From assembly GCA_963718615.1 (NCBI GenBank), contig OY970368.1, forward strand, positions 224,001-288,000: DNA of 64,000 bases, written 5' to 3'. Shown here one piece after another: positions 45,623-56,288 of this stretch. The position numbers and the translations under genes are program-made. How positions within the stretch are numbered: the stretch's first letter is position 1; each line of letters starts with the position of its first letter. The DNA is from an uncultured cyanobacterium (lineage in GTDB: Bacteria; Cyanobacteriota; Cyanobacteriia; PCC-9006; JAAUQQ01). The notes beneath the pieces are model-generated. The model saw nothing but the letters and a program-made list of their open reading frames with translations, did not search any database and was not told the DNA's origin.

Positions 45623-46339
45623 ATGGCGGATTCGATTCAGGTCATTCTTGAGGCATTGCCACGTCTCCTCCTAGGGGCCAAAGTCACCCTTCAGCTCACA
45701 GCCGCCTCCGTGACGCTGGGGATGATTTTGGGATCTTTGTTGGGGATTGCGCGGCTCTCTCGGGTTGCAGGGATTAGCTGGGCAGCGCGAATTTATATCG
45801 ACTTCTTTCGCGGTACGCCCCTTCTGGTTCAGCTCTTTATGATCTATTTTGGGGTTCCGGCATTGGTCCAAAGTGCGGGGCTGAGTTTCTCCTTCAATCG
45901 TTGGACTGCAGCCATTTTGGCGCTGACCCTCAACAGCGCGGCCTATCTGGCCGAGATTGTCCGGGCGGGCATCCAATCCATTGAAGTGGGACAGCGGGAA
46001 GCTTCAGAAAGTCTCGGGTTGAGTCCGCCCCAAGCGATGCTCTATGTCATTTTTCCCCAGGCTTTGCGCCGGATGATTCCCCCCTTGGGTAATGAGTTTA
46101 TTGCCATGCTCAAGGACACGAGCTTGGTCGCGGTGATTGGCTTTGAAGAACTGTTTCAGCAGGGGCGGCTGATTGTGGCCAAGAACTATCGTGCCTTTGA
46201 AATTTATGTGGCAGTGGCATTGGTTTATCTAACGCTCACGGTCCTGTCTTCTTTGCTCTTCAGTCAACTGGAACGCTGGATGAATCCTGCCACAAAATCC
46301 AATTCTGCACCGAGCCTGCCCGTCGCCACCGATCCCTAG
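45623..46339 (+). CDS. Polar amino acid ABC permease
   Basis: FRGTPLLVQ, AYLAEIVRAGI, LKDTSL. Confidence 0.92.
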   Translation: MADSIQVILEALPRLLLGAKVTLQLTAASVTLGMILGSLLGIARLSRVAGISWAARIYIDFFRGTPLLVQLFMIYFGVPALVQSAGLSFSFNRWTAAILALTLNSAAYLAEIVRAGIQSIEVGQREASESLGLSPPQAMLYVIFPQALRRMIPPLGNEFIAMLKDTSLVAVIGFEELFQQGRLIVAKNYRAFEIYVAVALVYLTLTVLSSLLFSQLERWMNPATKSNSAPSLPVATDP

Positions 46340-46549
46340 CCCCCCCTAGCAGAGGATCCAATGATCTCTGTTCTCCCCATTGGTGACGTTTCGCGCGAGA
46401 ATGGGAGCAATGGATATCCGGAACGACCGGTCTCTAGAGCCTCCTCAACGCTGACTTCGCCGTTTGCGCTAGGGTGTAGATCGAGCGTTATCCCCTCACC
46501 GGTGAGTCCACCTGTGTTTTTGTGATGCGTATTTTTTGATTCATCCACC

Positions 46550-47818
46550 ATGCTTAATTTGGACACTAGTTTTGATCTCACCCAGGATGACTATGCCCGC
46601 TACTCGCGGCATCTGATCCTGCCGGAAGTCGGCGTTGAGGGACAAAAGCGCTTAAAAGCGGCGAGCGTTTTATGCATTGGCACGGGCGGCTTGGGTTCGC
46701 CACTGCTACTCTATTTGGCCGCCGCAGGCGTGGGTCGTCTGGGAATCGTGGATTTTGATGTGGTTGACCCTTCCAATCTCCAGCGTCAGGTGATCCACGG
46801 CACCTCCTGGGTCGGCAAACCCAAAATCGAGTCGGCCAAAAACCGCATTCAGGAAATCAATCCCTTTTGCCAGGTTGATCTCTACGAAACCGCCGTAACT
46901 TCAGAAAACGCCCTGGAGATTCTCGAACCCTACGACATCATCGTGGATGGCACCGACAATTTCCCGACGCGGTACTTGGTAAACGATGCCTGTGTGCTGC
47001 TTGGAAAACCCAACGTCTATGGCTCGATTTTCCGCTTTGAAGGCCAAGCGACGGTGTTCAATTCCCAAGGGGGTTGGAAACGCCCAGACGGCTGGCACGA
47101 CCTGAGCAAGGCAGAAAAAGCCGAACTCCGCCACAGGAACAAAGACTGGTTCTACGACGAAACCCTGCCAGGACCCAACTACCGCGACCTCTATCCCGAC
47201 CCGCCACCGCCGGGGATGGTACCTTCCTGTGCCGAGGGCGGCGTGCTGGGAATTTTGCCGGGAATTATTGGCGTGATCCAGGCAACGGAAACCATCAAGC
47301 TAATTCTAGGGAAAGGCCAAACCCTCAGCGGTCGGCTCATGCTCTACAACTCCTTAGACATGAAGTTCCGGGAGCTCAAGCTTCAGCCCAATCCCGATCG
47401 CCCCGTGATCGAAACCCTGATTGATTATCAAGAATTCTGTGGAATTCCCCAGGCTCAAGCTGCTGAAGAGGCAGCCAAAACCATGATCCCTGAAATGACT
47501 GTGACGGAGTTGAAGACACTACTGGATAGCGGTGCTGATGACTTTGTGCTGCTTGATGTGCGCAATCCCCATGAATATGAAATTGCTCAAATTCCAGGGT
47601 CGGTCTTGGTGCCCTTGCCAGATATTGAAAATGGTAATGGAGTTGCTCAGGTCAAGGAGGTGCTCCAGGGTAAACGGCTAGTGGCTCACTGCAAGATGGG
47701 CGGGCGATCGGCCAAGGCGCTGGCAATTCTAAAGGAAAACGGCATTGAAGGCACCAATGTTAAAGGTGGCATCACGGCCTGGAGCCAGGAAGTGGATTCT
47801 TCAGTCCCGACCTACTAA
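46550..47818 (+). CDS. moeB: MoeB/MoeZ adenylyltransferase-rhodanese
   Basis: RYSRH, GTGGLG, SNLQRQ, DGTDNF, PSCAEGG, rhodanese HCKMGGRS. Confidence 0.93.
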   Translation: MLNLDTSFDLTQDDYARYSRHLILPEVGVEGQKRLKAASVLCIGTGGLGSPLLLYLAAAGVGRLGIVDFDVVDPSNLQRQVIHGTSWVGKPKIESAKNRIQEINPFCQVDLYETAVTSENALEILEPYDIIVDGTDNFPTRYLVNDACVLLGKPNVYGSIFRFEGQATVFNSQGGWKRPDGWHDLSKAEKAELRHRNKDWFYDETLPGPNYRDLYPDPPPPGMVPSCAEGGVLGILPGIIGVIQATETIKLILGKGQTLSGRLMLYNSLDMKFRELKLQPNPDRPVIETLIDYQEFCGIPQAQAAEEAAKTMIPEMTVTELKTLLDSGADDFVLLDVRNPHEYEIAQIPGSVLVPLPDIENGNGVAQVKEVLQGKRLVAHCKMGGRSAKALAILKENGIEGTNVKGGITAWSQEVDSSVPTY

Positions 47819-47820
47819 AC

Positions 47821-50520
47821 TCACACTTGATCGAGCCTAGCGCTTAAACGGGTCCTCAACTGCTTACCCAAGGTTTGAACCAAGGGCTCGTCCAAAATGC
47901 CATTGTGAGTTCCAGCAATTTCCAAGACTTCGATTTCGCCTTGCACGATATCATCCCAGCCCAAGAGCGGCATCATCGCCTTTGTGTGTTTATCGATGCG
48001 TTCCGTGGCTTTGATCAAAACCATCGAGAGGTTTTCGGGCTGGGGATCATAGACGAGTTGCATTTGCCAGCGATCGCTCGCCATCAAATGATAGGCCTGC
48101 CACTGAGAAAGCGGTAATCCCAGTTTGAGGAAAAGTTTTGCACTTAGCGTTCGCACATATTCACGGGTACCGATATAGCGATCCCAAAGCTTTTCTTGGA
48201 TATAACTCAAGCCTTGCTGCTTTAACTTTTCCCTGTGGCTCTGTGCCCGATTTTGCGTGGGCAAAATCCGATAACCTCGGCTTAAAAGACTATCCATAAC
48301 AGCGAGAAATGCGACGTCATATCCTCGTTGTCGGAGTCGAGCAGCCACTTCATAGGCTAACATTCCCCCAAACGAAAACCCAGCTAAATAATAGGGACCA
48401 GCGGGATAAATCCTCAAGATCTCCTCAACATAACAATGAGCCAGGGCTTCAACACTGTTCGGCAAGCGCTGATTGCCAATCATCTGCTCGACACCGCCGT
48501 AGATGGGTTGTTCAGGCAATAAATAGGGCGTTAGGGATCGATAAATATGGGCCCCGGACAGTAAAAATAGCGGCGGCAGTTGTCGCACAGGATCGCCCGG
48601 TTGCATAAGGTTTAGATTGACAAAACTCTCGGACGTTCTTGTTGGCTCACAAATTAATAGGGCAATTTGCTCAATGGTTGCGGCATCAAAGAGGCTCGGT
48701 AAAGGAATTGATTTTTGGAATTCTCGACTGATGCGATCGCACAATATCGCCACCTGCAAGGAATGCCCACCGAGATCGAAAAAGCGATCGCAAACCCCAA
48801 AATCAGATCGGTGCAAAATGGCTTGCCAAATTTCAAACAGCCGCTGCTCTACTACGTTTCTGGGTGGAATCGCGGGGTCTTCAGGCAGTAAAAGCGCAAC
48901 ATCGGACGCAGGCAGCGCCTGACGATCAATTTTGCCATTGGGATTGAGGGGTAGACAATCCAATTGTACAAAAATAGCCGGTATCATTTCCAGCGGAAGC
49001 TGCTGACGCAAAAACTCCCGCAGTTTGCTACCGCTAATCGGATGATTGATGGCATCGCGACAAATCAGATAGGCTACGAGCTGACGATCTCCGGCCCTAT
49101 CCTCAGATGCTGTAACAACGGCCTGCCGAATGCTAGGATAGCGGTTGAGAACGGCTTCAATTTCACCCAGTTCAATGCGAATACCACGAATTTTAACCTG
49201 ATAGTCTACTCGACCGATAAACTCCAGATTGCCATCAGCCCAGCGGCGGGCGCGATCGCCCGTTTTATAAAACCGCTGACCCTCCAGCGTGATAAATTTC
49301 TCCTGGGTGAGCTCGGGATTTTGGTCATACCCCCGTGCGACTCCCGCGCCACCAATGTAAATCTCTCCGATTTCTCCCACTTCTGCTGGCTGTTGGGCTT
49401 CGTCATATAAACCCAGGGTCACGCGATCGAAGGGCTGGCCCACCCAACGTTTTTCAAAGGGGCGATCGCGAGGAACGGCGTAGGTCAATGCTAGCGCTGA
49501 GACTTCGCTACAGCCATAGAGCACGCGAATTTGAGCACCCCGAAACACCAGTTTCATTTCTTCGACCAAATCTGCAGGAATTAAGTCTCCTCCCAGAAAC
49601 ACCTGACGAATTCCTAAAAACAGGTTGGGGTCAATGGAATTCGCTTGAATCCAGTTGAGGATTTGGCGCATCAGGCTGGGGACTGTGTGCAGGAGCGTCA
49701 CCATTTTCAGTCGCTCGACCAAATTGGGAATATCCAGAACTTGCTCACGGCTAAAAAGCACCGCTGTGCCACCGCTCAGCAGGGGACTCAGCAATTCAAA
49801 AAACGAAATGCTAAAGGAAAATCTGGCTAAACAGGGAAAAACGTCTTGGGCATTAAATTGAAATTTAGCTTGGGTCGTGAGTAGGTAATTGAGTAAATTT
49901 TGATGTTCAACAATGACACCTTTGGGGCGACCTGTCGTCCCAGACGTATAGATTAAGTAGGCTGCTTGCTTGGGCTCAATAGAAATGTTCAAATTATGGA
50001 TGTCAAAGTGAGCCCAAAGAGGGTCATCTCGGTCTAAGCAAAGCGTCAGCCCTTGATAAATAGGTAAGGTTTGAAGAACAGTTTCCTGAGTTAACAAAAC
50101 TGAGAGTTGAGACTGACTCAGCAAATCGTTAATTCGATGGGGAGGATAGCTCGGGTCAATCGGAACATACGTTCCCCCGGATTTCAAAATTGCCAGTAGA
50201 CCCATCATCAGTTCCAAACGGGGATGAACGCATAAGCCCACTCTGACTTCGGATTTCACGCCCGATTGCCGCAAGAACCGTGCCAATTGATTGGCTTGGG
50301 CATTGAGCGCTTCATAGGTCAGGGACTGATCATCCCATCGGACTGCGATCGCGTCTGGTGATCGTGTAACCTGTCCTTCAAAATACTTGAGAACGGATAG
50401 AGCCGATGTAGGCTGAGTTGCTGAGTGAATGCTTTGGGGTTGCTGGGATGAGAGTTCCCATTGAGTTGTCAATGTTCTCTGATCAAGTATTTCTTGTTCT
50501 AAGACTTCTCTCTCAAACAT
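47821..50520 (-). CDS. Stand-alone NRPS-like enzyme, A-T-TE
   Basis: YTSGTTGRPKG, FYKTGD, VKIRGIRIELGEIE, NGKIDR; T domain FFDLGGHSL; TE GFSFGG...GTH; no C domain. Confidence 0.93.
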   Translation of the reverse strand: MFEREVLEQEILDQRTLTTQWELSSQQPQSIHSATQPTSALSVLKYFEGQVTRSPDAIAVRWDDQSLTYEALNAQANQLARFLRQSGVKSEVRVGLCVHPRLELMMGLLAILKSGGTYVPIDPSYPPHRINDLLSQSQLSVLLTQETVLQTLPIYQGLTLCLDRDDPLWAHFDIHNLNISIEPKQAAYLIYTSGTTGRPKGVIVEHQNLLNYLLTTQAKFQFNAQDVFPCLARFSFSISFFELLSPLLSGGTAVLFSREQVLDIPNLVERLKMVTLLHTVPSLMRQILNWIQANSIDPNLFLGIRQVFLGGDLIPADLVEEMKLVFRGAQIRVLYGCSEVSALALTYAVPRDRPFEKRWVGQPFDRVTLGLYDEAQQPAEVGEIGEIYIGGAGVARGYDQNPELTQEKFITLEGQRFYKTGDRARRWADGNLEFIGRVDYQVKIRGIRIELGEIEAVLNRYPSIRQAVVTASEDRAGDRQLVAYLICRDAINHPISGSKLREFLRQQLPLEMIPAIFVQLDCLPLNPNGKIDRQALPASDVALLLPEDPAIPPRNVVEQRLFEIWQAILHRSDFGVCDRFFDLGGHSLQVAILCDRISREFQKSIPLPSLFDAATIEQIALLICEPTRTSESFVNLNLMQPGDPVRQLPPLFLLSGAHIYRSLTPYLLPEQPIYGGVEQMIGNQRLPNSVEALAHCYVEEILRIYPAGPYYLAGFSFGGMLAYEVAARLRQRGYDVAFLAVMDSLLSRGYRILPTQNRAQSHREKLKQQGLSYIQEKLWDRYIGTREYVRTLSAKLFLKLGLPLSQWQAYHLMASDRWQMQLVYDPQPENLSMVLIKATERIDKHTKAMMPLLGWDDIVQGEIEVLEIAGTHNGILDEPLVQTLGKQLRTRLSARLDQV

Positions 50521-50602
50521 AATTACAATTCTCCTGACTCATCAATTACACCTGACTCAATACTCAAATCAATAGTCTTAGGGCATAGGTCCGGCATAGC
50601 GT

Positions 50603-51808
50603 TTAGGGTGCGGTCTGAACTGCATTAAGGGAGTTGCTATGCAGTGCAATGGGAACCGCTGTTTTTAGAGAAGTCGGCAAAATTTTAGAGGGCGTACGTT
50701 TGTCCTGCTCATCCGCCACGGCTTGAAATAGGGCTTTAAAGTTACCTTCGCCATAACTTTGGGCACCATGACGCTGAATCACCTCTAGAAAAAAGGTCGG
50801 ACGATCCTGTACAACCGTAGTAAAGGCTTGTAAAAGATATCCCTGCTCATTGCGATCGGCCAGAATTTTGAACTGCTTTAATTGTTCTAAATCCTCATTT
50901 AAAAGACCCACGCGATCGCCCAAAGTATCGTAGTAAGAATCGGGAATTTGCAGAAACTCAACCCCCCGCTCCTGCATAACCCGAATCGTCTGGACAACGT
51001 CCTGGGAATGCAACGCGAGATGCTGGACACCAGGGCCACGATGGAATTTGAGAAACTCATTGAGCTGAGACTTTTGGAGGGCCGAAACGGGTTCAACCAA
51101 CGTGAGCTTAAACGTACCGGTTCGATTTTGTAAAGCCTTGGAATTCAAACCGCCGGACTCTGCATGGAGGGTAATTTGATAAAACTCTTCAAGACCCAGA
51201 ATTTGCTGATAAAAATGCACCCACTGCGGTAGGGTTCCCGCCTCTAAACAGATGGCAAGATGGTCAATGTAATTGATGCCAAGGGGCCGTTGCGATCGCC
51301 GATGCTTAATGGTTTTATATCCCGGAAACCACAGCGCTTTATCCGGACTAGACCGTTGAATAAAGCTATGAACCGTATCGCCATAGGCCGCGATCGCCGC
51401 CTTGATTAACCACTGCCCTGATTCGTCCTCATAGCGGACAGGCTCAAGCACAGGCTGAGCACCAGCTTCAACAGCATTTTGGAAGGCAATCACTGCATCA
51501 TTGACTCGAAAGCCAATTTCTTTGACGCTGTCGCCATGGGTGGCAGTGTGATAGGCAACCGGACTATCCGCCTGGGAAGCCCCAGTCAGCAGCAGATTGA
51601 CCTCACCCTGTTGGACCCAAAAGGACAGGCGATCGCTGATTCCTGTTTCGACTCCGGCGGTTGCCAGGAGCTGAAATCCGAGCGCAGAACAATAGAAGTG
51701 AGAAGCCTGAAAGGCACTACCCACATAGAATTCCACATATTCAATTGTCTCAATTTCAAAGGGCAACCGCGAGACAGATACCTGTCCCTTCTGAGAAGAT
51801 GGATCCAT
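50603..51808 (-). CDS. 4-hydroxyphenylpyruvate dioxygenase / hydroxymandelate synthase family enzyme
   Basis: Fe ligands in IDHLA, GVQHLAL and FLEVIQR; GEGNFKALF; YGDTVHSF. Confidence 0.9.
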   Translation of the reverse strand: MDPSSQKGQVSVSRLPFEIETIEYVEFYVGSAFQASHFYCSALGFQLLATAGVETGISDRLSFWVQQGEVNLLLTGASQADSPVAYHTATHGDSVKEIGFRVNDAVIAFQNAVEAGAQPVLEPVRYEDESGQWLIKAAIAAYGDTVHSFIQRSSPDKALWFPGYKTIKHRRSQRPLGINYIDHLAICLEAGTLPQWVHFYQQILGLEEFYQITLHAESGGLNSKALQNRTGTFKLTLVEPVSALQKSQLNEFLKFHRGPGVQHLALHSQDVVQTIRVMQERGVEFLQIPDSYYDTLGDRVGLLNEDLEQLKQFKILADRNEQGYLLQAFTTVVQDRPTFFLEVIQRHGAQSYGEGNFKALFQAVADEQDKRTPSKILPTSLKTAVPIALHSNSLNAVQTAP

Positions 51809-51851
51809 TGGAGATGTGCAAGATATTGAAAGATCTCAAATGCTCATCCGT

Positions 51852-51915
51852 TTGCCAAGTCAGGGATATTCACAAATATGTCAGATCAAATTGCCGAGCT
51901 AGGGATATTCATAAA
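51852..51915. repeat. Two imperfect 25-bp direct repeats, 39-bp period, upstream of the dioxygenase
   Basis: TTGCCAAGTCAGGGATATTCACAAA / TTGCCGAGCTAGGGATATTCATAAA. Confidence 0.7.
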
Positions 51916-52364
51916 CAGGGTTTTCAGCAAAACGCTTTTAACAACACTTCTGCTGTTATGCGGACCTCGTTGGTGATAAAATCTACGCTATCCTCCGGAG
52001 ACTTTTAAAGGAGTTTACACAAACTTCATGAATTAAGCTTGGATTATAAAGGAGAGAGAATTTTCCGTACTTCATCCTCAAAACAAGATGTATCCGTATT
52101 CACGAAAATCAGACTTCTGCGGTCTGCGATACAAAACGGGAATATCTAATCATCAATAGTTTTGGCCTAAACCATAGCCTTAAGATACAAAATCAGATAG
52201 CTGAAGACCAACAAAGCCTTCCCCTATTTCATCAAGCAATAATCTATTTCATCAATCAACAATTTGCGTTAGCAGCAACGACAAAGCCCCCTATTGAACT
52301 TTTTTTGCTCAGTTTTAGGGGGCTTTGGAGCATACTTTGGAGCATACATTGGGCCAATGGGCAC

Positions 52365-53192
52365 CTATACCTTGGAGCGATCGGTCAGAATCTCATACCC
52401 ATCATCCGTCACTAACACCGTATGTTCCCACTGGGCCGAGAGGGCGCGATCGAGCGTCACCACCGTCCACTTATCCCGCAGGGTTTTGGTGTGTTTGGAG
52501 CCTGCATTGAGAATCGGCTCGATCGCCAACGTCATCCCCGCCCGCAGCTTCACATTGGGCATATCCCGCGTCCGGTAGTTAAACACCGAGGGTTCCTCAT
52601 GGAGATTGCGACCTACCCCGTGCCCCGTGTAATCTTCCACAACGCTGAAACCATGGGCTTTGACGTGGTCTTCCACGGCTCCAGCAATATCGAGTAAATA
52701 ATTGCCCGCCTTGACCTGCTCAATGCCTTTAAACAGGGATTCCTCAGCCACCCGAATTAAATCTGCCGCTTCTGGGGTGACCTCACCGACTGCGATCGTA
52801 ATGCAGGAATCTCCATGGAAGCCTTGGTAATAAGCACCGGTATCGACCTTGAGCACATCCCCGGCTCGGATCACCTTGCGCTTGTTGGGAATTCCATGGA
52901 CCACTTCATCGTTAATACTGGAGCAAATCGAGCAGGGGAAGCCTTGGTAACCTTTGAAGCTGGGGGTGGCACCCATGCCGCGAATGCGCTTCTCGGCATA
53001 GGCGTCCAGATCCGCCGTGGTCATGCCCGGTTCCACCATTAAGGAAATTTCCTTCAACACCGTCGCCACGATTTTCGATGCTTCTCGCATGATCTCGATT
53101 TCGCGCTTGGATTTAATTTCCACACCGCGCCGTTGGCGCTGCGCTTGTTGCCCTTTGTTGGGCTGAGCTAAAAGACTACCGAAAATATTCAT
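52365..53192 (-). CDS. map: Methionine aminopeptidase type I
   Basis: VVHGIP, VDTG..HGD, GHGVG..HEEP, IEP, SAQWEHT. Confidence 0.96.
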
Positions 53193-53273
53193 GGCGATCG
53201 CGCAGGGCAAGAAAGATGAGGAGCAAGTTAACAATCCGTATCCTAGGCTAACAGAATCTTGAAGCCCCTGGGT

Positions 53274-53759
53274 TTAGCTCCCTTGGATCGTCAGGGTTCC
53301 CACCATACCCGCTTCCGTATGGCCCGGAACCACACAGCGCAGCCCATAGCTCCCAGACCGCACTGGCACAAAGACCCAATCGGCATAGGCCCCTGCTCGC
53401 ACCTCGATTTCATGAATTGCGCCTTTAACCTCGACGCCTCCCGTATCCACCTTTTGACTCCAGATTCCATCCGCAAAATCCTTGGCCGTGAAGTAATGCT
53501 TGCTAGGACTCGAATTCACCAGATGCAGCTGATACCGTTTGCCCGCTTCAAAGGTCAGGGTGTCGGGGAAAAAGCGGAGGGCTCCTGCTTCATTCCCAAG
53601 CTTCATTTCTACGGGGATGAGGGGTTGCTTGGCTAGGTTTTGAGGAGCCGCAAAGGCCTCGGCCCTCGCCCCTAAACCCTCTCCAGCGAGGAATCCCAGC
53701 CATAGAAGACAAATCATCGCCATCAGCAAACGGAGCAGACGGTGCAACCAGGGGTTCAT
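53274..53759 (-). CDS. Exported cupredoxin-domain protein
   Basis: Signal peptide; H...C.VPGH..AGM type-1 copper ligand pattern. Confidence 0.8.
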   Translation of the reverse strand: MNPWLHRLLRLLMAMICLLWLGFLAGEGLGARAEAFAAPQNLAKQPLIPVEMKLGNEAGALRFFPDTLTFEAGKRYQLHLVNSSPSKHYFTAKDFADGIWSQKVDTGGVEVKGAIHEIEVRAGAYADWVFVPVRSGSYGLRCVVPGHTEAGMVGTLTIQGS

Positions 53760-53856
53760 CTTAGATACCTCTTAAATACCTTGATTTGCAATAAAAGCTA
53801 GACGCCAGGCAGAAAGGTCGATATGATGGAAAATCGTGAGTTTTTGGCACGGAGTC

Positions 53857-54219
53857 ATGAACGCCCAGGCAATTCTTCGCTCCATTGAATCGGAGCACAT
53901 CAAGTCAGACCTCCCCGACATCTATGTCGGCGATACCGTGCGCGTGGGCGTCCGGATTCGCGAGGGAGAAAAGGAACGAGTCCAGCCCTACGAAGGTATT
54001 GTCATTGCCATGCGCAATGGCGGTATCAGCGAAACGATTACAGTCCGCAAGATTTTCCAAGGCATTGGCGTAGAGCGCGTGTTTCTACTCCATTCTCCCT
54101 TAATTGAGAGCATCAAAATCATTCGTCGCGGTAAAGTGCGTCGGGCGAAATTGTATTATCTACGCGATCGCGTGGGTAAAGCCACCCGCGTCAAGCAGCG
54201 TTTCGATCGCAGCCTCTAG
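53857..54219 (+). CDS. rplS: 50S ribosomal protein L19
   Basis: [33 protein letters not shown]. Confidence 0.98.
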
Positions 54220-54392
54220 GTTTATGCCTATGGGCGATCGCGATCGCGACGAAAGGGTGCCTTGCTCTGGCACCATTCCGTGTCATAATGGCGAAGAGCG
54301 AATTTTGACCAGAATTCTGTTGCTCCATTAGCCTCCACCCCTAATGCGGCTCGAAACAGGTTATCCTGAGATTGAATTCGATCTTCTCCCTT

Positions 54393-54465
54393 GCGTCCTT
54401 AGTTCAGTTGGTAGAACGTCGGTCTCCAAAACCGGATGTCGGGGGTTCAAGTCCTCCAGGGCGCG
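54393..54465 (+). tRNA. tRNA-Trp(CCA)
   Basis: GCGTCCTTAGTTCAGTTGGTAGAAC..CTCCAAA..GGTTCAAGTCC..AGGGCGCG. Confidence 0.96.
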
Positions 54466-54522
54466 TTGTGACAGGGGCAAAGGCAACTCAAAACAGTTGA
54501 CACAAAAAGTTGAAACAACGTG

Positions 54523-54551
54523 TTGACAAATGAGTTTCTCCTCTGCACAAT
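54523..54551 (+). promoter_or_regulatory. Sigma70-type promoter for tRNA-Asp
   Basis: TTGACA-17 bp-CACAAT. Confidence 0.6.
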
Positions 54552-54615
54552 GGTAAAGCTGGTAAATGCAAAGGCCAGCGACCACATGCCGAAAGGTAGT
54601 GCCGAAAGGCAGTCT

Positions 54616-54689
54616 GGGACTGTAGTTCAACCGGTTAGAGCACCGCCCTGTCACGGCGGAAGTTGCGGGTTCGAATCCCGTCAGTCCCG
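54616..54689 (+). tRNA. tRNA-Asp(GTC)
   Basis: GGGACTGTAGTTCAACCGGTTAGAGC..CTGTCAC..GGTTCGAATCC..CAGTCCCG. Confidence 0.97.
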
Positions 54690-54725
54690 TTAATCAGACC
54701 GATAGAAACCCGATAAATCTAAAGG

Positions 54726-54754
54726 GCGAAACGAGTTAATCCGTTTCGCTTTTT
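54726..54754 (+). terminator. Intrinsic terminator after tRNA-Asp
   Basis: GCGAAACG-N8-CGTTTCGC-TTTTT. Confidence 0.8.
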
Positions 54755-54836
54755 ACTGTGTAGGATGAATCCCTGGTCCCTGTATGGGTCCCTTATTCTC
54801 CATTCGTTACTCCCTTATCCTTTACACCCTTTCACC

Positions 54837-56288
54837 ATGTCTGTCCGCGTTCGCATCGCCCCCAGCCCCACCGGCAACCTACACATCGGCACCGCTCGTA
54901 CTGCGGTCTTCAACTGGCTGTTCGCGCGGAACCAGGGAGGCACGTTTATTCTGCGCATCGAAGATACAGACCAGGAGCGATCGCGCCCGGAATACACGGA
55001 AAATATCATGACCGGCCTCCAATGGCTGGGGCTGGACTGGGATGAGGGTCCGTTCTACCAAACCCAGCGCCTAGACCTCTATGGTGAGGCGATTAAAATT
55101 CTGCTGGATAAAGGCTTGGCTTACCCCTGCTATTGCAGCGAGCAGGAGCTAGAGGCTATGCGCGAAGGTCAAAAGGCCCGCAAGGAAGCGCCTCGCTATG
55201 ACAATCGTCACCGGAATTTGACCCCAGAGCAACAGGCCGCGTTTGAAGCGGAAGGTCGGGAGCCAGTGATTCGGTTCAAAATCGAGGACGATCGCGTCAT
55301 TCAGTGGGACGACATGGTTCGGGGCACCGTTACCTGGAAGGGCAGCGACCTAGGGGGCGATATGGTGATTGCCCGTCGGGCTCCCGCTGGCACCATTGGC
55401 CAACCGCTCTACAACTTTGTCGTGGTCGTGGATGATGCGGATATGGCGATTACCCATGTAATTCGTGGCGAGGACCACATTGCCAACACCGGCAAGCAAA
55501 TTTTGCTCTACGAAGCCCTGGGCAAGCCTGTGCCCCAGTTCGCCCACACGCCGCTGATCCTGAATTCAGAAGGCCGCAAGCTGTCCAAGCGCGATGGTGT
55601 CACCTCCGTCGCCGACTTCCAGGCTATGGGCTATAGCGCCGAGGCCCTGGCCAACTACATGGGGCTGCTGGGCTGGTCGCCGCCGGAACCCATGACTGAG
55701 CGGTTTACCCTAGCAGAAGCCGCCCAAGCCTTTAGCTTCGATCGCGTCAATAAGGCCGGAGCCAAGTTCGACTGGGATAAGCTCAACTGGCTCAACAGCC
55801 AAGTCCTCCACGCCATTCCGCCGGAAACGCTGGTGGATCAGCTTTTGCCCCTGTGGCAGGCAGCGGGGTATGCGTTCGATGGAGAGGGCGATCGCCCCTG
55901 GCTCACGGAACTGGCTACTCTGATCGGTCCCAGCCTAGTCAAGCTCAACGACGCCGTCGAACAGGTCAGTCTGATCGCCACTGAAACCGTCGAGATTCAA
56001 CCCGATGCAGCAGCATTGCTCCAGCAGGACACCGGCGCTGGAATCGTCCAGGGCTTTCTTGCAGGGCTGGCTGACGCCGCTGCATTCACACCGGATACGG
56101 CCAAAGCCCTGATTGACCAAGTGACCAAAGCCCAAGGGGTCAAAAAAGGCGTGACCATGCGGACGCTACGGGCGGCGCTCACCGGGGCACTCCAAGGGCC
56201 AGACCTGATGCAGGCTTGGATGCTGCTCAATCAGAAAGGCTGGGACAAAACCCGCCTAGAGAAGGCGCTTACCGCTGCCCAAGGTTAG
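54837..56288 (+). CDS. gltX: Glutamate-tRNA ligase
   Basis: [30 protein letters not shown]. Confidence 0.97.

Follow-up and report, generated by a model that had tools for sequence, protein, structure and literature searches.

Two adjacent genes in the genome of an uncultured cyanobacterium (GTDB order PCC-9006, family JAAUQQ01; assembly GCA_963718615.1) may together make, load and release a 4-hydroxyaryl acid that carries no amino group. They lie in a 64,000-nucleotide stretch of contig OY970368.1 (positions 224,001 to 288,000; hereafter the window, by which coordinates are given unless a contig or locus is named). The first encodes an Fe(II) dioxygenase of the 4-hydroxyphenylpyruvate dioxygenase (HPPD) superfamily with the signature of hydroxymandelate synthase (HmaS), and the second a stand-alone enzyme resembling nonribosomal peptide synthetases (NRPSs), built of adenylation (A), carrier (T) and thioesterase (TE) domains without a condensation (C) domain. 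In the reading we favor, whose chances we put at about even, the HmaS-like enzyme would make the acid, the A domain would load it, and the TE would set it free by hydrolysis or in the form of an ester or oligoester. This reading builds on the gene structure, the intact catalytic motifs, the residue substitutions, the family membership and the recurrent pairing of this synthetase family with enzymes of 4-hydroxyphenylpyruvate (4-HPP), all directly observed. A preliminary description of the locus had proposed that the dioxygenase supplies a non-amino aromatic acid to the synthetase, and this interpretation of the pair appears supported in outline. The two genes are co-oriented and 82 bp apart, as that description stated, and both reading frames are intact:

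50603..51808, minus strand: HPPD-superfamily Fe(II) dioxygenase, HmaS-signature variant, 401 aa (TIGR01263, 378 bits)
50521..50602: intergenic gap between the dioxygenase and A-T-TE genes, 82 bp, GC 0.40
47821..50520, minus strand: stand-alone NRPS-like A-T-TE enzyme, 899 aa, without condensation domain (Pfam; TIGR01733, 369 bits)

In the proposed pathway, the dioxygenase would take 4-HPP from primary metabolism and hydroxylate its benzylic carbon, giving 4-hydroxymandelate or a related non-amino 4-hydroxyaryl acid rather than homogentisate, because the substrate-positioning Asn of HPPD is replaced (Thr236/Val238, as in HmaS). The A domain resembles those for 4-hydroxyphenylglycine (Hpg), with the amino-binding Asp changed to Ser and the 4-hydroxyl-binding His kept, and its pocket suggests that it would adenylate this acid and load it onto Ser587. 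More speculatively, the TE (Ser716/His872), with no C domain present, would release the acyl group by joining it to a second unit as a linear or cyclic oligoester, by passing it to a different acceptor (hydroxyl or amine), or by hydrolysing it off the carrier.

The synthetase and its adenylation pocket

The elements of the synthetase were located as follows:

48931..50382, minus strand: adenylation domain, residues 47-530, code SIFHFGLALK, YGCSE for YGPTE (aligned pocket columns)
49810..49812, minus strand: Ser237 at Stachelhaus position 235, which is Asp in alpha-amino-acid domains (alignment to LgrA domains and Tcp9 A1)
48658..48846, minus strand: carrier (T) domain (PF00550)
48760-48762, minus strand: phosphopantetheine site Ser587 in GGHS (motif position)
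47866..48555, minus strand: thioesterase domain (PF00975)
48373-48375, minus strand: TE Ser716 in GFSFGG (motif)
47905-47907, minus strand: TE His872 in AGTHNG (motif)
48292-48294, minus strand: probable TE Asp743 (placed by position only)

Pfam assigned AMP-binding, AMP-binding_C, PP-binding and Thioesterase domains to the protein and detected no condensation domain (PF00668), with 44 residues preceding the A domain; the absent C domain, the T serine and the TE Ser/His pair are thus as first described. All core motifs of the A, T and TE domains are intact (YTSGTTGRPKG, YKTGD, GRVDYQVKIRG..., NGKIDR, GGHS, GFSFGG and the C-terminal His). The A domain scored above the TIGR01733 cut-off (369 versus 317 bits) and contains core motifs A1-A10, with A5 reading YGCSE. 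The same alignment columns yielded the standard codes DILQLGLIWK, DFWNIGMVHK and DAFWLGGTFK from other domains, which validated the code extraction, and Ser237 aligned with the FD motif of both LgrA domains and with the 'FDAS' of Tcp9 A1.

When the pocket segment alone (126 aa) was searched against the PDB, the best solved match was Tcp9 A1core (8GIC), the L-Hpg complex of teicoplanin module 1, followed by 8GJP, 8GKM and 8GLC, engineered or ancestral derivatives of the same domain (identities as given in an excerpt of PMC10687080); these matches come from E<=1e-3, with nothing at E<=1e-10. The Tcp9 A1 pocket reads DAFHLGLLC in the 8GIC alignment. Its His237, which hydrogen-bonds the 4-hydroxyl of Hpg (excerpt of PMC10687080), aligns with His278 (H278) of the window A domain, and its Asp196, which is in contact with the amino group of the substrate (PMC12060904, figure 4 legend), aligns with the window Ser. 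The two domains share F239, H278, G301, L322 and, by motif, K517. They differ in the Ser that replaces Asp196 (position 235), at positions 236/299/330/331 (I/F/A/L versus A/L/L/C), in YGCSE for YGPTE, and in that the window A domain is followed by T-TE only, with no multimodular line. By these comparisons, the window A domain is a descendant of amino-acid-type (Hpg-like) domains, and the Ser at the Asp235 position, the Hpg-like pocket and the HmaS-type residues of the dioxygenase all speak for the earlier proposal that the substrate is an aromatic acid without an amino group.

Three other NRPS-type genes were found in the genome, all with ordinary Asp235 codes and none belonging to the Ser235 family described below. 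They include a second stand-alone A-T-TE enzyme (935 aa, code DLEDIIAVAK, G000:C1:5629189-5631996, equivalent to L029:8190-10997) that follows three GT2 genes, and a 1153-aa X-A-T protein (code DAEDIGTVVK, C1:2375908-2379369).

The dioxygenase active site

The residues of the dioxygenase on which its assignment turns are the following:

51089..51109, minus strand: active-site strand KLTLVEP, with Thr236 and Val238 for HPPD Pro243 and Asn245 (S. avermitilis numbering; aligned to 2R5V)
50726..50746, minus strand: C-terminal helix GNFKALF, with Phe357 and Phe361 (S. avermitilis F364 and F368), HPPD-like (aligned columns)
51260..51262, minus strand: Fe ligand His183 (S. avermitilis H187; aligned column)
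51020-51022, minus strand: Fe ligand His263 (aligned column)
50783-50785, minus strand: Fe ligand Glu342 (aligned column)

The protein matches the HPPD N-terminal and VOC domains, and its TIGR01263 score lies well above the cut-off of 277 bits; this model does not separate HmaS-signature proteins, since one that adjoins an aminotransferase gene (L081) scores 426 bits. The three iron ligands and the active-site Ser and Gln residues are conserved. Thr236/Val238 align with T214/I216 in the LTLIEP strand of HmaS from Amycolatopsis orientalis (2R5V), so that the Asn which positions the substrate in HPPD (N245 in S. avermitilis, N241 in human, N282 in Arabidopsis) is Val238 here. Across the central active-site segment (86 aa), the similarity to HmaS 2R5V (89.3 bits) exceeded that to S. 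avermitilis HPPD 1T47 (76.9 bits), whereas over the full length the best PDB match was 1T47 (286 bits, versus 229 for HmaS 2R5V and 229 for HmaS 3ZGJ). The usual ...RGNL tail of HPPD is replaced by a 30-aa extension. The similarity of the dioxygenase is, as aligned, a mosaic of an HmaS-like center and an HPPD-like C-terminus.

The enzyme thus shares with HmaS the HPPD fold, the His/His/Glu iron site, the Ser201 equivalent, the Thr plus aliphatic pair where HPPD has Pro/Asn, and genomic linkage to an NRPS-type enzyme. Unlike HmaS, it keeps both Phe residues of the C-terminal helix, positions that in HmaS are presumably occupied by Ile335 and Tyr339, and it stands without the partners Hmo and HpgT, which are absent between moeB and map, so that the pathway would stop at the hydroxy acid. 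Because it is overall nearer to HPPD than to HmaS, it looks like an independent offshoot of HPPD. In S. avermitilis HPPD, the F337I variant gives hydroxymandelate (Gunsior 2004, as cited in an excerpt of PMC13260116). A 4-hydroxymandelate-type product is likely but not certain for the window enzyme, since its Thr/Val pair is HmaS-like and yet the Phe at position 364 and an HPPD-like C-terminus are kept. We take Gunsior's F337 to be F364 in the numbering used here, a presumed correspondence derived from ligand offsets and ligand numbers.

The preliminary description had asked whether this might be the sole canonical HPPD of the organism, and it is not. A second HPPD (C1:638440-639525, 269 bits), 31% identical to the window dioxygenase, has counterparts in all five same-family genomes tested (42-55% identity), while no counterpart of the window dioxygenase was found in the same-family genomes tested. 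The window dioxygenase is a second, non-vertical HPPD paralogue and not the housekeeping enzyme.

Dioxygenase relatives that have lost Asn245

Among 131 aligned dioxygenase homologues, 91 carry the canonical P-N...F residues and a further 10 N-N...F. In a 72-row tree (quick IQ-TREE, SH-aLRT support), the window dioxygenase fell in a 9-row clade (99%) that has lost N245, whose other eight members have C or V for N245 and I or V for F364; 30 canonical P/N-N-F rows, including the HPPDs that adjoin cyanobacterial synthetases of the SIFHSGICMK type, formed a separate clade (99%). Loss of N245 went together with NRPS genes in the neighborhood. In one-genome-per-species contigs, among the matches listed (80 loci), NRPS genes flanked 10 of 11 N245-lost genes versus none of 69 canonical ones, and in metagenome contigs, among the matches listed (79 scored loci), 10 of 18 versus none of 61; these counts cover the fetched flanks only, include related organisms that are not independent of one another, and contain many NRPS-free loci on short contigs. 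The 9-row clade of the window dioxygenase itself was absent among the matches listed in both scans.

In seven N245-lost loci, the A domain most similar to that of the window reads DI[FL]H[FL]G... (DIFHFGLMWK, DIFHFGGIIK, DIFHLGLMIK, DILHLGLIIK in three, and DIFHLGLII?), and in all seven a class I/II aminotransferase gene follows the dioxygenase gene. By analogy with the canonical Hpg route through Pdh, HmaS, Hmo and HpgT (as outlined in an excerpt of PMC12060904), this layout is read as a hydroxyphenylglycine supply route. In five of the seven (L080, L081, L083, L166 and L169, e.g., L081:9926-13650), a LarA-like gene of the lactate-racemase family comes next after the aminotransferase gene; these LarA-bearing loci are Acidobacteriota-type NRPS clusters, and their layout may represent an alternative route from mandelate to Hpg.

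A third, separate HPPD context in the class looks catabolic. The 12 best class matches to P0122, a relative of the window dioxygenase, were all canonical HPPDs in apparently catabolic operons. Many cyanobacteria have a canonical HPPD in such an apparent operon (L015:3842-10575 in G029, and L254-L262), where it is accompanied by a homogentisate-dioxygenase-like gene, another of ~316 aa and a third, of ~700 aa, that resembles acyl-CoA synthetases.

A cyanobacterial family of Ser235 synthetases

The synthetase belongs to a family in which the Asp to Ser change is general. Ser235 together with a YG[CS][ST]E motif was present in 81 of the best 120 matches in a large protein collection, and the window enzyme, with SIFHFGLALK and YGCSE, fits the family pattern S-I-[FL]-H-x-G-x-x-x-K. 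Two codes dominate the 81 members, SIFHFGLSLK (40) and SIFHSGICMK (29). Of these members, 67 begin with an N-terminal extension of ~100-320 aa that corresponds in part to the final stretch of a condensation domain (PF00668 positions 389-456 in L068), and 14, including the window enzyme, do not. The named members are all cyanobacterial (Leptolyngbya, Phormidium, Nodosilinea, Myxacorys, Kamptonema and Halomicronema), and beyond the query genome, 38 of 400 genomes sampled from the class had a match at E<=1e-150 (39 of 401 with the query included), the best being 44% identical. A phylum-wide search with another relative, P0005, returned mostly generic NRPS modules.

Of 20 loci fetched, 16 contained family members, ten of them with SIFHSGICMK and six with SIFHFGLSLK. 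An adjacent canonical HPPD gene was present in nine of the ten SIFHSGICMK loci, and the tenth genome has HPPD plus the prephenate dehydrogenase TyrA on another contig; a T-protein-type prephenate dehydrogenase and GT2 often accompany these loci as well. None of the six SIFHFGLSLK loci had HPPD; five contained a ~240-aa VOC protein weakly like the catalytic half of HPPD (TIGR01263, 39 bits), five a T-protein-type prephenate dehydrogenase, and three an O-methyltransferase. Over the 16 family loci, HPPD was thus a neighbor in nine and the small VOC protein in five, and the window enzyme has its HPPD-superfamily neighbor 82 bp upstream. In a 99-row FastTree phylogeny of the synthetases, clades with one code are interspersed with clades of the other and HPPD adjacency goes with the code, so that pocket subtype tracks the partner enzyme in the cyanobacterial loci.

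Two cluster layouts recurred in L061-L074. The first (e.g., L068:6927-14918) comprises GT2, the synthetase, a canonical HPPD and a T-protein-type prephenate dehydrogenase, and the second (e.g., L062:6599-14243) GT2, the synthetase, a prephenate dehydrogenase, an O-methyltransferase and the ~240-aa half-HPPD-like VOC protein. Some family loci carry a bimodular synthetase of ~2250 aa (L065:3359-10126).

The window enzyme shares with this family Ser235, I236, F239, H278, G301, K517, YGCSE, the T-TE tail and a partner from 4-HPP metabolism. It differs in lacking the N-terminal condensation remnant of about 230-320 aa, in having no TyrA, GT2 or O-methyltransferase neighbors, and in pairing with an N245-lost dioxygenase instead of a canonical HPPD or the small VOC protein.

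Distribution and likely co-occurrence of the pair

No orthologue of the A-T-TE enzyme was found in seven other genomes of the order (62-93% complete), nor was the pair, and no relative above 44% identity was found in 400 genomes of the class. In the synthetase tree, the window enzyme, on a long branch (1.0), groups with P0002/P0003 (99%) and then P0004/P0005 (97%), in a 5-row early-branching clade beside an 89-row main clade. The contigs that carry the synthetases P0005, P0247 and P0004 are 38132, 81261 and 1063715 letters long, and the same three sizes recur for the contigs of P0122, P0249 and P0250, which are the nearest relatives of the window dioxygenase; from the matching sizes, both genes likely co-occur in all three such relatives. 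In public run X6, a 757-letter contig spans 50444-51148 with 33 differences in 705 aligned letters and runs from the 3' part of the dioxygenase gene across the gap into the opening 77 bases of the synthetase gene, and runs X1 and X3 contain short near-identical pieces of both genes. The pairing, whose absence from other genomes would have spoken against the preliminary description, recurs at three levels, as adjacent HPPD genes in nine of ten SIFHSGICMK loci, as relatives on same-size contigs, and as a 95%-alike contig across the junction. The two genes probably constitute one small biosynthetic unit that was acquired horizontally.

Evidence weighing against the proposed pathway, and two alternatives

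Several observations pull in the other direction. The dioxygenase is nearer to HPPD than to HmaS over its full length (286 versus 229 bits), it retains Phe357/Phe361 (S. avermitilis F364/F368) unlike all eight other members of its clade, and its C-terminal 76 aa are HPPD-like (83.4 bits to 1T47 versus 44.2 to 2R5V). Loss of the Asn can by itself uncouple the reaction, the human N241S variant giving an oxepinone and the same Asn variant of the S. avermitilis and rat enzymes giving quinolacetic acid (excerpt of PMC13260116). The dioxygenase branch is long (1.2 changes per column), and the protein deviates at 15 of 92 highly conserved columns versus 0-4 in four controls, which makes relaxed selection possible; the changes at these columns are mostly conservative (e.g., D to E, I to L, F to Y). 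On the side of the synthetase, we know of no characterized A domain with Ser at position 235. The four top pocket matches amount to one independent match, at 37.1 bits versus 32.9 for the next unrelated one, and 8GIC ranks only about fiftieth in a full-length search (166 bits over the full A-core). Tcp9 A1 adenylates a keto acid without loading it on the carrier (according to an excerpt of PMC12060904), so that its pocket shape admits such acids while loading of a non-amino acid is not automatic and needs adaptation. As for the locus, prephenate dehydrogenase and GT2 genes, which accompany the family elsewhere, are missing from the window, the genome contains no T-protein-type TyrA paralogue, and adjacency within the query's own clade rests on the contig-size matches plus one short contig.

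The HPPD-like C-terminus, the retained Phe residues and the full-length score mean that homogentisate may still be made, and the two Phe residues together with the C-terminal region make this the main rival. In such a case the same two-gene logic would hold with a working HPPD, and the loaded acid would be homogentisate (2,5-dihydroxyphenylacetate), as is likely in the SIFHSGICMK clusters. The score above the TIGR01263 cut-off is in keeping with a working HPPD, and the canonical HPPD found at nine of ten SIFHSGICMK loci makes homogentisate-type substrates plausible within the family. We nevertheless regard homogentisate as rather unlikely for the window locus: the Asn needed for HPPD-type positioning is Val, the enzyme nests in the N245-lost clade and not in the canonical one, the A domain has an SIFHFGL-type code that went unpaired with canonical HPPD in six of six fetched loci, and the pocket positions that distinguish the subtypes (299, 322, 330 and 331) follow the non-HPPD subtype.

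The long branches of both proteins (1.2 and 1.0) and the 15 changed conserved columns could also mean that a larger acquired cluster has been decaying and that the pair is what remains of it, adjacent without present function, with one or both genes inactive or unexpressed. The absence of TyrA, GT2 and the N-terminal C-remnant, which most relatives have, would agree with this, as would the finding of the pair in none of the seven other genomes of the order. Decay is nonetheless improbable in our judgment, given that both reading frames are intact, all metal ligands and the A, T and TE core motifs are kept, the conserved-column changes are mostly conservative, 14 of the 81 family members also lack the N-terminal extension, and a relative that is 95% alike retains the junction.

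Comparison with other stand-alone synthetases

The preliminary description had likened the synthetase to the atromentin and ralfuranone synthetases, and this analogy holds for the domain order and fails for the ancestry of the A domain. The atromentin, terrequinone, polyporic acid and ralfuranone synthetases have the same A-T-TE order without a C domain, a likeness of shared domains; these enzymes likewise use a non-amino aromatic acid from the Tyr/Phe pathway, and bond-forming release by the TE is predicted here as well. Their substrates are alpha-keto acids, which they couple into dimers through C-C bonds (excerpt of PMC9047271), whereas the window A domain appears to come from an amino-acid-type, Hpg-like domain and the synthetase is partnered with a dioxygenase that would remove the keto-acid function. 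Were the window enzyme nevertheless of this kind, its A domain would load 4-HPP or 4-hydroxybenzoylformate, the TE would join two units into a quinone or furanone, and the dioxygenase would tailor the substrate or compete for it. Besides the domain order, the lack of Asp235 fits this alternative, as does the ready adenylation of a keto acid by Tcp9 A1, the closest solved pocket (excerpt of PMC12060904). We give it little credence, because TIGR01733 scores the A domain above cut-off as one of amino-acid type, the domains nearest to it are those of ordinary NRPS modules and those with Hpg-like pockets, the locus has no oxidase for converting mandelate to the keto acid, and the tight tracking of pocket subtype with the type of partner dioxygenase argues that the product of the dioxygenase, and not its substrate, is loaded. 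To our knowledge, the keto-acid codes of such enzymes are also unlike SIFH.

MysE-type enzymes of mycosporine-like amino acid (MAA) clusters are likewise cyanobacterial stand-alone A-T-TE proteins of about 880-900 aa. One example (L077), which adjoins DHQS-like, O-methyltransferase and ATP-grasp genes, differs from the window enzyme in having a Ser-type amino-acid code (DVWHISLIDK) and YGPTE, is 37% identical to it, and falls outside the Ser235 family; no MAA-type neighbors (DDGS/EEVS, O-methyltransferase or ATP-grasp) were found at the window locus.

Genomic setting of the locus

The pair is flanked by moeB and map, as previously described, and has its own upstream region, which at 556 bp agrees with the ~550 bp first reported:

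46550-47818, plus strand: moeB (NF005646, 768 bits)
52365-53234, minus strand: map (TIGR00500, 306 bits)
51809..52364: upstream non-coding region between the dioxygenase start and map, 556 bp, GC 0.40
51852-51876 and 51891-51915: two 25-nt direct repeats, 84% alike, 39-nt spacing, 44-107 nt before the dioxygenase start codon
52282-52327: hairpin with a 12-bp stem, just after map

The moeB gene is convergent with the A-T-TE gene and ends 2 bp from it, and map lies upstream of the pair on the same strand. In same-family genomes, synteny with the window stops directly after moeB, and neither map nor any other downstream window gene was found within ~14 kb of moeB in G001 and G003, so that the pair lies at a breakpoint. 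The preliminary description was right about the flanking genes; the clean insertion between them that it proposed is not demonstrable, since the synteny of same-family relatives ends after moeB. It had also called the pair more AT-rich than its neighbors. The GC contents of the two genes (0.488 and 0.493) are indeed below the genome mean of 0.536 (sd 0.049; 2081 long open reading frames), but the difference is modest, and a strong compositional signal was rejected because the genes sit at the 15th-17th percentile and are no outliers.

Scanning for promoters and terminators gave no more hits than expected by chance, the promoter-like sites of the upstream region included, and revealed no terminator-like site in the 82-bp gap. 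No Rfam element other than two tRNAs was found in 46000-55000, and the upstream region had no match. The 25-nt direct repeats, for which no further copy was found elsewhere in the genome at up to 5 mismatches, could be a candidate regulator site, and the hairpin is probably the map terminator. Also in the 3' region of map, a 20-nt unit recurs in tandem at 52224-52263 (90% identity between its 2 copies), and a 12-nt unit, CTTTGGAGCATA, is perfectly duplicated in tandem at 52323-52346. The two tRNA genes are on the plus strand (54393-54465 and 54616-54689), between rplS and gltX. MoeB has 422 aa against a 390-position profile, and in out-of-family genomes the match covers residues 207-422 alone or is split into 1-175 and 207-422, suggesting that this taxonomic family has a specific insert of ~31 aa (residues about 176-206). 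The genome has 19 phycobiliprotein matches, in line with its cyanobacterial origin, and one gene for an Sfp/ACPS-type phosphopantetheinyl transferase, which together with the intact core motifs speaks for a competent synthetase.

Significance

The domain order of NRPS-like enzymes and the chemistry of the HPPD/HmaS pair are known, and our literature searches found no match to a characterized cluster and no description of HPPD or HmaS combined with an NRPS-like enzyme in cyanobacteria. A Ser235 pocket of Hpg-type origin that is linked to 4-HPP dioxygenases in many cyanobacteria, and that occurs here in a two-gene form with an intermediate HPPD/HmaS enzyme, is therefore an apparently undescribed combination. 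We tentatively suggest, with appreciably less confidence than in the pathway itself, that the locus represents, in minimal form, an undescribed cyanobacterial NRPS-like family, which would have arisen from an Hpg-type A domain through the Asp to Ser change and would thiotemplate alpha-hydroxy or aryl-acetic acids made from 4-HPP. Two enzymes would then yield a 4-hydroxymandelate ester or cyclic oligoester, and the dioxygenase would be an independent, convergent reinvention of HmaS that is only partway there, the Asn already gone and the Phe still in place. If confirmed, the finding would provide a sequence rule for a new A-domain substrate class (Asp235 to Ser, Hpg-shaped pocket, YGCSE) usable by prediction tools, and a chemical theme, acids derived from 4-hydroxyphenylpyruvate, for a widespread orphan family. 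As a natural HPPD/HmaS intermediate, the dioxygenase would bear on the choice between ring and benzylic hydroxylation. Two genes would suffice as an entry to the aromatic product of the family, which could serve as pigment, sunscreen, signal or polymer decoration.

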